A DNA stretch of 32,000 nucleotides. It comes from Candidatus Electronema halotolerans (GTDB lineage: Bacteria > Desulfobacterota > Desulfobulbia > Desulfobulbales > Desulfobulbaceae). The stretch is taken from the NCBI GenBank assembly GCA_942493095.1, contig OW818675.1, positions 660,001 through 692,000 of the forward strand. The letters are read 5' to 3'. The number at the start of each line of letters is the position of its first letter. Positions within the stretch are counted from its first letter, which is position 1. Below the pieces are notes generated by a model. That model ran no database searches and had not been told where the DNA came from. It was given only the letters and a program-made list of their open reading frames with translations. A program made the translations under genes and the position numbers. Positions 17,445-22,032 of the stretch are shown in pieces.

Positions 17445-17828
17445 TCAGGCGGCTCCGCCTGCCTCTTCTCCTGCCAAGGCGCGGCGGATTGAAGCCTTCA
17501 GCTCCTTGATCTTGACCGGCTTGGGGAAGAAGTCGAACACGTCGTCGCGCAGGGCCTCAATGGCCACGTCCAAGTTGGCAAAGGCGGTGATCATGATGAC
17601 CACGGTCTGAGGATACTTTTCCTTGACGATCCGCAGCACTTCCAACCCATCCACGCCCTTCATCTTGAGGTCAGTGACCACCACCTGAAAGGTCTTTTCC
17701 TCAAGCCGCTTGAGCGCGCTCTCGCCGTCAAGAAAGGTTTCCACGTCATAGCCTTCCTGGCTGAGGGAGAGCTTGGCCATGTCGCCCACTATCCGCTCAT
17801 CGTCAATGATCATGATGCTGCTCTGCAT
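17445..17828 (-). CDS. Stand-alone receiver-domain response regulator (CheY-like, no output domain)
   Basis: IMIIDDE...[17 protein letters not shown]...VIMITAF...FFPKP are the receiver motifs (DD, phospho-Asp, T, K). I used the ATG at 17826-17828, which overlaps the kinase stop by 26 nt. Confidence 0.85.
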
Positions 17829-19233
17829 TGCTGTCGCTCCTTCGCACACATTTGTCCAAGTTGAGTGGCAGCATGATGGTGAAGGTTGTGCCTTCATCTA
17901 TCGCGCTCTGCACGCGAATGTCGCCGCCGTGATTTTTGATGATGCCGTAGCTGACCCAGAGGCCCAGCCCGGTGCCGCCCTCCTCCTTGGTGGTGAAGAA
18001 AGGGTCAAAGATATATTCCAGCTGCCTTGGCGGAATGCCCTTGCCAGTGTCACTGACCTCGATCTCGGCCCGCTCCAGCTCCGGCAGGAAGCGGGTGGTC
18101 ACGGTCAGCGCGCCGCCCGGCTGCATGGCTTGGATGGCATTGATCATCATGTTGACCAAGACCTGCTGAATCTGATGCTCGTCAAGGCAGAGCTGGGGCA
18201 TCTGCTCGTCAAAGTTGAGCTTGGTGCGGACGTTGCCGATGGTGAGCATGTTGTGCACCAAGCCAAGGCACTTCTGGGCCACCTCATTCAGATCATGGCT
18301 GGCAATCTGCTTTTCCTTGGGTTTGGCAAAGTCAAGCAGGTTCCTGATCGTGTAGCGCAGCCGCTCAGTCTCCTCGTCAATCTGATTGATGAACTCCAGC
18401 TGCTGATCGCTCCCCAGCTTGTCATGCAGCTCGGCAAAGGTCTGGGCGATCATGGAGATGTTGTTGAGCGGGTTGTTCAGCTCATGGGCCACGCCTGCCA
18501 CCAGCACCCCGATGGAGGCCAGCCGCTTGGAGCGGATCATTTCCTCCTCGCGCAGATTCAGCTCTTCAGACATGGTGCTGATGGCCTGCACCACCGCGCC
18601 CAGCTCGTCCGGTGAGGGCTTCTTGGCAGGCCGGGAGAAGTCGCCCTTGGCAATCGCATGGGTCAGCTCAACAATCTGCTCAAGGGAGCGGCGGATGCTG
18701 CTGGCGTTCCATTGGGCAAAGAAAAGGGCAAAGCCGAGCACAGCCAGGAAGGCGAGCCAGAGGATGCTCTTGGAGCGTTCAATGAGTGCGGCCACCTTGT
18801 CCCGCTCCATCTTGATGATGTTTTCAGAAAAGGTGCGCAGGGCATGGCCGGAATCACGCACCTTGGTCTCATCACCGTGCCCGTCAATCAGAGCGCGGAC
18901 ATTGCCCCGGTAGTCGGCAAGGAGCTGGACCAGCCGGTTGTAGTCGTTGCCGCCAGTCACCTGCTCAATGTTCTCCCGCTCCTCAGCCAAGGCGGGCATG
19001 GTTTCTGTGATGCGGGTGCAGATCGAGTTCAGGGCCTCTTTGTCGCTGTAGAGAAGGTAGTTTTTCTCGGCTATGCGCATTTCCAGAAAGGCGGTGTTCA
19101 GACTGTCCGCAATCTCCATGAAGTGAAACTTCATCATCAGCTCGTTGAAGGCCTGCAACGAGAGAAAGCCGACAATGAAGATCAGGGCGATGTTGACTGC
19201 GTAAGACAGATGAATCCGATGAACTATTTTCAT
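17803..19233 (-). CDS. Sensor histidine kinase (2 TM + ~130-aa extracytoplasmic region + HAMP + HisKA + HATPase_c)
   Basis: The TM helices are VNIALIFIVGFLSLQAF and ILWLAFLAVLGFALFFAQW. The HAMP-like part is IAKGDFSRP...ISTMSEELN. The H-box is AGVAHELNNPLNNI and the N box is VLVNMMINAIQA. The G boxes are DTGKGI and GTGLGL. Confidence 0.9.
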   Translation of the reverse strand: MKIVHRIHLSYAVNIALIFIVGFLSLQAFNELMMKFHFMEIADSLNTAFLEMRIAEKNYLLYSDKEALNSICTRITETMPALAEERENIEQVTGGNDYNRLVQLLADYRGNVRALIDGHGDETKVRDSGHALRTFSENIIKMERDKVAALIERSKSILWLAFLAVLGFALFFAQWNASSIRRSLEQIVELTHAIAKGDFSRPAKKPSPDELGAVVQAISTMSEELNLREEEMIRSKRLASIGVLVAGVAHELNNPLNNISMIAQTFAELHDKLGSDQQLEFINQIDEETERLRYTIRNLLDFAKPKEKQIASHDLNEVAQKCLGLVHNMLTIGNVRTKLNFDEQMPQLCLDEHQIQQVLVNMMINAIQAMQPGGALTVTTRFLPELERAEIEVSDTGKGIPPRQLEYIFDPFFTTKEEGGTGLGLWVSYGIIKNHGGDIRVQSAIDEGTTFTIMLPLNLDKCVRRSDSNAEQHHDH

Positions 19234-20462: not shown

Positions 20463-22032
20463 GATAAAATACTGCCTTCTGCCAGAAACGGGAAGGAACG
20501 CCGTAGTCTGGCAGCATGATTTCCAAGTCTGCGAAGCAGTAGGGCAGCTCGGCCCGTTTCCGCTCCGCCGGGATAGTCCAATAAAAGCCGTCCACCACCA
20601 AGGCCAGTCCGCCGACAGCCAAGCTCAGATCAAACAGATGCCAGACCCAGGCTGCCGCAGGAAAGGAGATGAGAAAGGCGATGCCGATCAGGAAAATGCT
20701 CAGGCCGGTGCGGATGAAGGCCATGCCGGTGCGCGAGCGGGCCATGATGGTGCGCAGCCTGGCCATGACATTGCGGCGGTCGGCCAGCACGGTGCGCTCC
20801 AAGGCAAGGCCGGTGGTGGCCCAAATCCCAGGAGCATGAGAGCGGCGCACTGGCGGAGGCTGCAACGGAGCGGAACCAGAACGCAGGTCCGGGCAGGTCT
20901 GGGCATGAGGAAAGAAAATATCCCAGATCGTCCCTGCCTTGCCAGCCCGCTCCACTGAGGCCAAGCCTTCATCACCGGCAGGACGGCCCTTGCGGTACCA
21001 AAAAAAGCCCTCCAGCACCATCAGCACCCCGGCCAGCATCAGGCAGAAGTCAAAGGCCCGCCACGGGCTGGCAGGAAAGGCCCGCATCAGGCCAAAGCCC
21101 AAGGAGAAAAAGGCCAGGCCGGTTCTGGTGAAGGCCAGGCCGGTGCGCACCTTGGCCATCTGGGTGCGCAGGCAGGCGAGGACGGTCCGCTCCTCAGCCA
21201 TGTCGGTGCGGTCGCTGGCAAGAAAGCGGCGGCGCATCACTGGCGAGAGTTTGGTCCAGCCAGCCCGCAGGTCTGCGGCGGTCGGCACGTCCGGCAGCCG
21301 CTTGAACACGGGGAAGTCCTCTTGGTTCTCTGCCGCCAAAACGGTGGTTCCGCCGGTAGGAACAGTGGCGGTGCAGACGGGCAGATGGCTTTTCACCTGC
21401 CGGGCGGGCAGGTAGCGGCGCAGACTGTCAAAGCCAATCCACGCGCCAAGGAGGAAGAGCGGCAGCTCCAGCAGGATGAAGTCGCCCATGCCAAAGACCC
21501 GGACAAAGAGTAGGGCAATGGCGATGAACGAGAGCGCGGTGCGGATCCACGCCAGGCCAGTGCGGCTTTTGGCCATCAGGGTGCGGTAATGGGCCAGCAG
21601 CGAGCGGCGGCCTGCCAGATAGGTGCGCACCTGCGCCAAAGGTGTGCGGCCTGCTTCCGGTGGAAAATCCGGGTTCAGGTCAAAGCTGTGCTCCAGCACC
21701 CGGACAAAGTCATAAGGCAGGGTGAGGACAAAGTCCAGCTCCTCCACGTCCAGCCGCTGCCGGGCCAGATTGGCGACCTCATCCGGGGCGCGGCAGGTCA
21801 GAATCTTGGCCCGGCCATCCTTGACCGAGAGCGGCAGCCAGCCTTCCTGCTTCTGCGTGACCGCATCAAGATGCACGACTAACAGAAAGGGTGCGCTTAT
21901 CTTTTCGCTGTATTCCACGACCGGGCAGCCGTATTGCTCGGCAAGGCACTGAAGCTGCTCGTGTTTGCTGAGGCCGACAGGGGCGGCGGACGACCCGGAA
22001 CAGGCATCGTTCTGGTGATGATCAGTTTTCAT
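20449..22032 (-). CDS. Membrane protein: T2SSE_N-like domain fused to three DUF202 (YidH-like) modules; paralog of the downstream gene
   Basis: The N-terminus is LQCLAEQYGCPVVEY...GWLPLSVKDGRAKILTCRAPDE...FVLTLPYDFVRVLEHSF. The three modules are LLAHYRTLMAKSRTGLAWIRTA, ERTVLACLRTQMAKVRTGLAFTRTG and ERTVLADRRNVMARLRTIMARSRTGMAFIRTG. Each is followed by TM helices. Confidence 0.7.
   Translation of the reverse strand: MKTDHHQNDACSGSSAAPVGLSKHEQLQCLAEQYGCPVVEYSEKISAPFLLVVHLDAVTQKQEGWLPLSVKDGRAKILTCRAPDEVANLARQRLDVEELDFVLTLPYDFVRVLEHSFDLNPDFPPEAGRTPLAQVRTYLAGRRSLLAHYRTLMAKSRTGLAWIRTALSFIAIALLFVRVFGMGDFILLELPLFLLGAWIGFDSLRRYLPARQVKSHLPVCTATVPTGGTTVLAAENQEDFPVFKRLPDVPTAADLRAGWTKLSPVMRRRFLASDRTDMAEERTVLACLRTQMAKVRTGLAFTRTGLAFFSLGFGLMRAFPASPWRAFDFCLMLAGVLMVLEGFFWYRKGRPAGDEGLASVERAGKAGTIWDIFFPHAQTCPDLRSGSAPLQPPPVRRSHAPGIWATTGLALERTVLADRRNVMARLRTIMARSRTGMAFIRTGLSIFLIGIAFLISFPAAAWVWHLFDLSLAVGGLALVVDGFYWTIPAERKRAELPYCFADLEIMLPDYGVPSRFWQKAVFYRAAD

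Follow-up and report, generated by a model that had tools for sequence, protein, structure and literature searches.

The 32,000-nucleotide (nt) window analysed here (contig OW818675.1 of Candidatus Electronema halotolerans, positions 660,001 to 692,000) carries on its minus strand a four-gene operon, g1 to g4, which encodes two membrane proteins, a histidine kinase and a receiver-only response regulator (Table 1). A previous sequence-only reading of this DNA had described four minus-strand open reading frames (ORFs) overlapping by 14, 4 and 26 nt. We re-read the junctions directly in the sequence, found the same overlaps and located the ribosome-binding sites. g1 and g2 share 14 nt (GTGCAGCAGACTGA), with GAAGG upstream, while g2 and g3 overlap by the 4 nt of a common ATGA, with GAGGA 8 nt upstream. 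The overlap of g3 and g4 is 26 nt, and the ATG of g4, at 17828, has AGGAG 8 nt 5' of it. This start is favoured over that of the longest ORF because orthologous receivers are of similar length (120-129 amino acids (aa)). Every gene has its own ribosome-binding site, and the four genes form a tightly coupled operon.

Table 1. Features of the g1-g4 operon, of its products and of its leader. Residue ranges refer to the proteins; helix pairs are from AlphaFold2 (AF2) models.
Feature	Position	Strand	Description
g1	20449-22032	minus	527-aa ORF
g2	19230-20462	minus	410-aa ORF, GTG start
g3	17803-19233	minus	476-aa ORF
g4	17445-17828	minus	127 aa from internal ATG; longest ORF 17445-17897
g1 N-domain	aa ~20-118		partial GSPII/MshEN-like, followed by three DUF202 hairpin modules
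g2 N-domain	aa 8-145		full GSPII/MshEN-like, followed by two DUF202 hairpin modules
g1 Arg stalks	R129-R164, R268-R303, R413-R441		Arg at every seventh residue (6, 6 and 5)
g2 Arg stalks	R158-R193, R307-R342		Arg at every seventh residue (6 and 6)
g1 helix pairs	131-180/186-214, 264-318/325-365, 403-456/462-495		AF2
g2 helix pairs	157-206/213-241, 302-358/364-394		AF2
g1 leader	22033-22238	minus	206 nt, intergenic, 5' of g1
Inverted repeat	~22202-22172	minus	GC-rich, in g1 leader; by eye
T8 run	22161-22154	minus	in g1 leader, 3' of the preceding gene; by eye
Promoter-like site	22151-22123	minus	TTGACT-17 nt-TTCAAT, in g1 leader; by eye, weak

On sequence comparison, g1 and g2 are paralogues (33% identity across 352 residues, E = 2e-38). 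The sequence-only reading had assigned three DUF202 copies to g1 and two to g2, and Pfam agrees, since PF02656 matched three stretches of g1 (53.6 bits) and two of g2 (31.1 bits), both proteins lying above the gathering cut-off of 23.4 bits. The same reading had placed a T2SSE_N-like domain at the N-terminus of each protein. For g2 this holds in full, by profile, PDB search and predicted fold. Pfam MshEN scored 41.9 bits (cut-off 23.1 bits), and a PDB profile search with 26 g2 homologues retrieved the GSPII domain of Thermus PilF (E = 3.7e-8), as well as Myxococcus PilB and, weakly, MshE. In the AF2 model of g2 (predicted local distance difference test (pLDDT) 75.5 overall and ~90 over the N-domain; g1 and g2 were modelled as single chains), Foldseek matched the N-domain over ~140 residues to GSPII/MshEN structures (9g1w, 8pdk and MshE 5htl), PilF GSPII among them, with target-normalised TM-scores of 0.6-0.7. 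For g1, only a partial domain can be claimed. Its MshEN score of 16.8 bits is below the Pfam cut-off, and its model (pLDDT 74.6, predicted TM-score (pTM) 0.66) matched the GSPII fold across ~100 residues (E = 5e-3). The match is this short because g1 of Desulfobulbales lacks the N-terminal helices of the GSPII domain, which in the alignment are kept by Nitrospirota g1; as modelled, the g1 N-domain here is the C-terminal part of the GSPII/MshEN fold only. The N-domains thus share the fold of the GSPII domains of MshE, PilF and PilB (5htl, 8pdk, 9g1w, 7lko), partially in the case of g1. However, GspE, PilB and MshE have a C-terminal T2SSE ATPase, whereas Pfam detected no such domain in g1 or g2, whose C-terminal parts consist of DUF202 modules instead.

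The DUF202 modules contain the repeated ERT signature mentioned in the sequence-only reading, although its description has to be corrected to that of a strict Arg heptad ladder. Each module contains 5-6 'R-T-x-L-A-x-x' heptads, giving a total of 29 in-register Arg residues across five stalks, nearly all of them invariant in the family alignments (26 homologues for g2). When the 29 heptads were pooled over ~25 sequences, position 0 was Arg in 100% of the cases, position 1 was Thr (78%) or Asn (11%), position 3 was Leu, Met or Phe (86%) and position 4 was Ala or Ser (97%), while positions 2, 5 and 6 were mixed and variable. On a helical wheel, with Arg at 0°, Leu falls at -60° and Ala/Thr at +40° and +100°, so that the conserved residues occupy one 160-degree face. 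The central place of Arg between Leu and Ala/Thr indicates that this face is an interface and not that of an amphipathic surface helix.

In all five modules, the AF2 models show a first helix of 50-57 residues and a second one of ~30-40 residues, and by hydropathy only the second helix and the C-terminal portion of the first lie within the membrane. Taken together, helices and hydropathy indicate that a module is a cytoplasmic stalk continued by a hairpin of two transmembrane helices, with a periplasmic loop of 5-8 residues. Both AF2 and hydropathy give two transmembrane helices per module, not three, and the Pfam model itself spans the first two only. Conserved Gly and Asp/Glu residues lie within these transmembrane helices. 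The Joint Genome Institute (JGI) annotates the homologues as 'YidH (DUF202 family)'. YidH has three transmembrane helices, and in E. coli YidH the DUF202 domain begins with ERTxLAWxRT, that is, two heptads of the same repeat. However, YidH is a single small unit that lacks an N-terminal domain, a heptad extension and a kinase or receiver of its own.

The products of g3 and g4 had been described as a HAMP histidine kinase and a receiver-only regulator, and Pfam agrees. In g3, two transmembrane segments enclose a ~125-aa periplasmic region and are followed by HAMP, HisKA and HATPase_c domains; the H-box, HELNNP, can be read in the translation. g4 matched Response_reg only (aa 5-114, 95.8 bits), and its translation contains the acidic pocket DD...D...T...K, with the phospho-acceptor Asp, the Thr and the Lys present. 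With a HisKA and HATPase_c kinase and a receiver bearing a phospho-acceptor Asp, g3 and g4 qualify as a two-component pair. The nearest NCBIfam models are of the AtoS/ZraS type for g3 and NtrC/AtoC receivers for g4, all far below cut-off, and NCBIfam provided no name for any of the four proteins. Pfam detected no DNA-binding or other output domain on g4, whose orthologs measure 114-150 aa, nor any DNA-binding domain elsewhere in the operon.

Related genes are common in databases, where g1 and g2 each have >900 relatives at 50-93% identity, the nearest named ones belonging to Candidatus Electronema (73-81%). Using one genome per GTDB species, we recovered 185 encoding loci. Among the best 80 of these, analysed for taxonomy, 47 are from Nitrospirota (Thermodesulfovibrionales, Dissulfurispiraceae and Ca. 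Sulfobium), 29 from Desulfobulbales/delta-type bacteria, one from Thiotrichaceae and three from other groups. The system is mainly confined to lineages that reduce sulfate, disproportionate sulfur or oxidise sulfide, among them relatives of cable bacteria. In the 67 loci that are informative for gene order, i.e. those with at least 3.5 kb downstream of g2, a kinase ortholog follows g2 in 63-64 cases, and the complete order g1-g2-kinase-receiver is kept on the same strand in 63. The flanks vary between lineages while the four genes stay together; the four genes are therefore the conserved core. The 14-nt overlap of g1 and g2 itself recurs across many Desulfobulbales loci. Median identity of the orthologs to the window proteins is 54% for g1, 54% for g2 and 48% for the kinase. 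It reaches 78% (range 68-91%) for the receiver, the highest of the four, and by this comparison the receiver is by far the most constrained protein of the operon. In five Nitrospirota loci (L022, L023, L026, L044 and L057), two tandem g1-type genes precede g2, which amounts to eight DUF202 modules.

These data bear on the simplest explanation, namely that a conventional two-component pair, with a DNA-binding regulator encoded elsewhere as its target, happens to lie beside two unrelated membrane proteins. The NtrB/NtrC (AtoS/AtoC-like) lineage of kinase and receiver would fit such a scheme, as would the separate kinase/NtrC pairs found near some Nitrospirota loci. However, conservation of order and strand in 63 of 67 loci across two phyla, with differing flanks, rejects chance adjacency and supports the linkage to kinase and receiver put forward in the sequence-only reading. 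Moreover, the genes of the operon overlap and a sister family fuses receivers to DUF202 (see below). This explanation, largely refuted by synteny, seems to us barely credible.

The GSPII/MshEN-like domains raise two further possibilities. According to the first, they bind c-di-GMP or a related cyclic dinucleotide and thereby control the membrane proteins, as in MshE, PilF GSPII-B and NfrB. Their fold matches the c-di-GMP-bound structures 8pdk and 5htl, at the TM-scores given above. A membrane protein with an MshEN domain under c-di-GMP control is known in NfrB (PMC8669469); like g1 and g2, NfrB bears MshEN on a membrane protein and not on a secretion ATPase, but its glycosyltransferase is absent from them. 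The sequence-only reading had considered that the c-di-GMP motif was not intact in either protein. We extended the scan to 240 homologues, using the tandem 24-residue motif RLGxx(L/V/I)(L/V/I)xxG(L/V/I)(L/V/I)xxxxLxxxLxxQ and its relaxed form (Wang et al. 2016, PMC5013675), and neither form was found in g1, in g2 or in any of the homologues. The Gly of motif position 3 is missing, the four-helix half in which the site lies is absent from g1 of the Desulfobulbales clade, and no GGDEF/EAL gene recurs among the neighbours. Binding in the canonical mode is rejected by the lack of the motif in 240 of 240 sequences, and we judge a role as c-di-GMP effector to be very unlikely.

The second possibility is that the operon is an accessory of type II secretion or type IV pili, with the GSPII domains docking onto a GspL/PilM-type platform so that the operon regulates the pilus or secretion. 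GSPII/MshEN domains are otherwise typical of the GspE/PilB/MshE ATPases, and some g2 homologues are named 'type II secretion protein' in databases. This proposal, which we find highly improbable, is contradicted by the lack of the T2SSE ATPase domain and by the neighbourhoods, since pil and gsp genes are not among the recurrent neighbours in 85 loci; the conserved partners are the kinase, the receiver, a dikinase, TauE, Alph_Pro_TM, Usp and a PPP-family phosphoesterase.

Among these partners, a ~860-aa phosphoenolpyruvate (PEP)-synthase-like dikinase with PPDK_N and PEP-utilizers domains was found by neighbour clustering in 67 of the 85 loci, directly after the receiver and/or upstream of g1, where it occurs once or twice. 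The ATP-grasp and swivel domains of this protein resemble those of PEP synthase, and the swivel His is present in all 82 of 82 sequences. The N-terminal 140 aa and the conserved C-terminal 308 aa had no Pfam or PDB match, and the protein is below every NCBIfam cut-off. TauE, Alph_Pro_TM, a tandem Usp protein and a PPP/ApaH-like phosphoesterase also recur, none of them within the 32-kb window. Several Desulfobulbales relatives (L009, L014, L017, L036, L045, L046, L059, L060 and others) have up to three paralogous ~860-aa dikinases, arranged as kinase-dikinase-dikinase-g1-g2-kinase-receiver-dikinase, plus the PPP/ApaH-like phosphoesterase. In Nitrospirota (L020, L021, L029, L037, L040, L047, L048, L062 and others), a fixed block immediately 5' of g1 encodes a 165-aa protein, TauE, Alph_Pro_TM, the tandem Usp and a 140-aa protein. 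TauE and Alph_Pro_TM are also present at the Electronema locus L006.

To look at sister architectures, a profile search was carried out over 1.84 billion representative sequences. It gave 974 representative hits, of which the full-length g1/g2 clusters are a handful and among which no natural g1-g2 fusion was found. Single-hairpin relatives (P0301, P0307, P0312 and P0316) have far longer arrays of the same heptad, with ~16 in P0301. A further family of ~90 clusters, typified by P0305, joins the heptads and a DUF202 hairpin to a C-terminal receiver that is 47% identical to g4. Fusions of this type share with the operon the RTxLAxx heptads, the DUF202 hairpin, the receiver and the recurrent dikinase, Usp, TauE, Alph_Pro_TM and PPP-family phosphoesterase genes, but they have one hairpin, no GSPII domain and a fused receiver, and an adjacent kinase is often absent. 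In the four contexts read, the dikinase gene lies directly 3' of the fusion gene in all four. The context of P0301 likewise includes a dikinase, a phosphoesterase, a receiver, Alph_Pro_TM, TauE and a HAMP kinase. The same gene set is thus found around three DUF202 architectures, an argument for the DUF202 protein and/or the dikinase, and not DNA, as the target of the receiver. Fusion of a g4-like receiver to a heptad-DUF202 hairpin also supports the view of the sequence-only reading that the system is a membrane signalling or transport complex with a non-transcriptional output. In this respect, g4 resembles the CheY-like single-domain regulators, which are receiver-only, phosphorylated by a cognate kinase and non-transcriptional in output, as is predicted for g4. 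However, these belong to the chemotaxis lineage and g4 to that of NtrC/AtoC, and the presumed target of g4 is the DUF202 complex and/or the dikinase instead of the motor.

Some of the hits were set aside. P0292 (1003 aa) has several GSPII domains but no DUF202, hence is no g1-g2 fusion. P0482, an apparent DUF202-receiver-dikinase protein, combines a DUF202 hairpin with a receiver that is truncated and with the central part of a dikinase; it looks like a deletion chimera and was left out of the counts. P0262 is a g1-like protein with two modules only, in which the stalk of module 1 is apparently joined to the hairpin of module 2. Both P0262 and P0482 look like products of recombination or assembly between repeats or adjacent genes.

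In the literature searched, we found no paper joining MshEN with DUF202 and none on this gene set, no function for YidH/DUF202 in bacteria and none for Alph_Pro_TM, the pore of the VTC polyphosphate polymerase/channel of eukaryotes being the sole DUF202 function described there. All the domains are known, whereas the four-gene system, which is clearly real and widespread, is without description in that literature. With PADLOC, g1 to g3 gave no match and g4 only a generic receiver match; membership of an anti-phage defence system was rejected, as no system-specific match was obtained.

VTC is a heteropentamer of three Vtc1, one Vtc3 and one Vtc4 in which the first transmembrane helices line the pore; the pore has two positive rings, K24 and R31, seven residues apart, and Vtc1 has three transmembrane helices (bioRxiv 10.1101/2023.01.27.525886). 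The yeast Vtc1 sequence, checked against 8i6v_A, matched PF02656 with 63.9 bits over residues 24-85. The Pfam model begins at K24 of Vtc1, R179 of g2 and R150 of g1, and through its coordinates the Arg ladder falls into register with K24 and R31. Yeast VTC (8i6v, 7ytj) and the operon are thus alike in PF02656, in the basic residues at i and i+7 on the first helix and in a count of five DUF202 units, 3+2 here and 3+1+1 in VTC. On the other hand, VTC has SPX and catalytic TTM domains, which Pfam did not detect in g1-g4 or in the recurrent neighbours, and it has two rings against 5-6 Arg rings on a long cytoplasmic stalk here. VTC is controlled by inositol pyrophosphates, whereas the system described here would be by a kinase and a receiver, and the units of g1 and g2 are covalently linked. 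The operon does not encode a VTC complex, and the resemblance is best taken as a lead for mechanism only.

With this lead, we consider it quite possible, though short of probable, that the operon encodes a regulated Arg-lined pore for an anionic substrate, which is controlled by the receiver and whose output is not transcription. We infer the 3+2 ring, the pore, the class of substrate and the target of the receiver. In such a system, g1 with its three hairpins and g2 with two, being made in a coupled manner, would probably assemble 1:1 into a five-hairpin ring like that of the DUF202 subunits of VTC. The first helix of each hairpin would reach ~30-40 residues into the cytoplasm as a heptad stalk, and the five stalks could pack as a barrel whose lumen has 5-6 stacked Arg rings, an arrangement suggested by the invariant Arg, which occupies the centre of the conserved face, between Leu and Ala/Thr. 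The barrel would give the membrane pore a long electropositive vestibule, which would suit an anion or polyanion; a phosphate polymer, other phosphate species and a sulfur oxyanion are candidate substrates. The GSPII/MshEN-like domains, with the c-di-GMP site lost, are probably protein-docking platforms and are candidate docking sites for the receiver. The HAMP kinase would sense a periplasmic cue and phosphorylate the receiver-only regulator, which could then bind the DUF202 complex and gate or activate it. In most relatives, the phosphorylated receiver may also act on the adjacent PEP-synthase-like dikinase, which, where present, would either supply or modify the substrate or be itself the regulated enzyme.

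Alternatively, g1 and g2 could be a scaffold or transducer that nothing crosses, the hairpins being anchors and the Arg/Leu heptads a signalling coiled coil. This coiled coil would bring to the membrane the GSPII-like domains, the receiver and, where relatives have one, the dikinase, and the system would act by controlling the activity of that enzyme. The tightest conserved pairing, that of the receiver or of the DUF202-receiver fusion with the dikinase, is in line with this idea, and so are the shortness of the periplasmic loops, the lack of any channel matched by Foldseek and the known role of GSPII domains in docking proteins, as seen for PilB-N and PilZ (7lko). Yet a simple anchor needs neither 100% Arg in each heptad, nor Gly and Asp/Glu within the membrane, nor five hairpins. 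Ordinary coiled coils of two or three strands disfavour Arg at core heptad positions, which also counts against a scaffold. In addition, the operon persists in the window without an adjacent dikinase, and the sole characterised DUF202 domain forms a pore (bioRxiv 10.1101/2023.01.27.525886). On balance, a scaffold appears unlikely, while keeping a real chance of being correct.

Several observations weigh against the Arg-lined pore. No VTC chain was found by PDB profile searches with the full-length and module profiles or by Foldseek of the g1 and g2 models, and hhalign against Vtc1 gave an insignificant probability of 2%. Direct homology to the solved VTC chains is thus undetectable by these three approaches, and as the direct comparisons are negative, the link to VTC rests on shared Pfam membership. 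Vtc1 has, besides, three transmembrane helices against two per module in g1 and g2. For the membrane parts of g1 and g2, Foldseek gave no significant match at all, those to ExbB, ABC exporters and pore toxins being insignificant (E ~0.02 or higher, with very low TM-scores). The eight modules of five Nitrospirota loci misfit a simple 3+2 count, tblastn detected no dikinase in the 32-kb window, and the recurrent neighbours include no ppk, no ppx and no other gene for polyphosphate. If Arg rings were stacked in a lumen, they would also require bound counter-ions to be stable.

In a more specific version of the Arg-lined pore, g1 and g2 would correspond in bacteria to the VTC channel and form a translocon of five hairpins, with a cytoplasmic Arg-lined tube of 40-60 Å through which a linear phosphate polymer, or another linear polyanion, is passed across the inner membrane. 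The co-conserved dikinase would feed the polymer in most lineages and the neighbouring PPP-family phosphoesterase would trim it, and the translocon would be switched by the periplasm-sensing kinase through the docking receiver. We regard this version as doubtful, with a small chance of being right.

Upstream of g1, the leader contains three elements recognised by eye (Table 1), which provide weak evidence that the operon may be a separate transcription unit. A consensus promoter/terminator scan gave nothing above shuffle expectation in the operon, and these elements were not among its output. Rfam and tRNA scans gave no match in the operon region, a tRNA-Ala(GGC) at 4898-4973 (minus) being the sole RNA gene detected across the window. 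The region 22239-24809 contains, directly upstream of the operon, a minus-strand 213-aa lipoprotein-like ORF with a weak match to cytochrome P460 and, divergent from it, a plus-strand DUF3373 protein (386 bits). The Electronema loci L006 and L008 lack these flanks. TauE and Alph_Pro_TM, found at L006, are present near the single-hairpin relative P0301 as well. Elsewhere in the window, the minus-strand ORF at 1259-3862 encodes an 867-aa IMP dehydrogenase with IMPDH in two stretches and CBS, interrupted by a Hint and LAGLIDADG insert; from its domains it looks like a guaB gene with an intein. The stretch 27969-31298, where the local GC drops to 0.43-0.51, contains an IS200-like fragment and a DDE transposase ORF, and a second low-GC island (0.42) lies at 10001-11000.

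The operon appears to be a clear example, on sequence grounds, of a GSPII/MshEN domain without c-di-GMP binding that has been redeployed onto a membrane protein. Together with its sister families, it gives a first coherent bacterial context for DUF202, consisting of a dedicated phosphorelay, a receiver that is sometimes fused to the membrane module, a dikinase whose acceptor domain has no assignment, and an extreme Arg-ladder architecture that suggests a testable function. If the polymer translocon were true, it would represent a previously unknown route by which sulfur-cycling bacteria, relatives of cable bacteria among them, make and export polyphosphate or polyanions. The role of the system may be relevant to how these organisms, which are important in the environment and hard to culture, handle anions, phosphate or energy.

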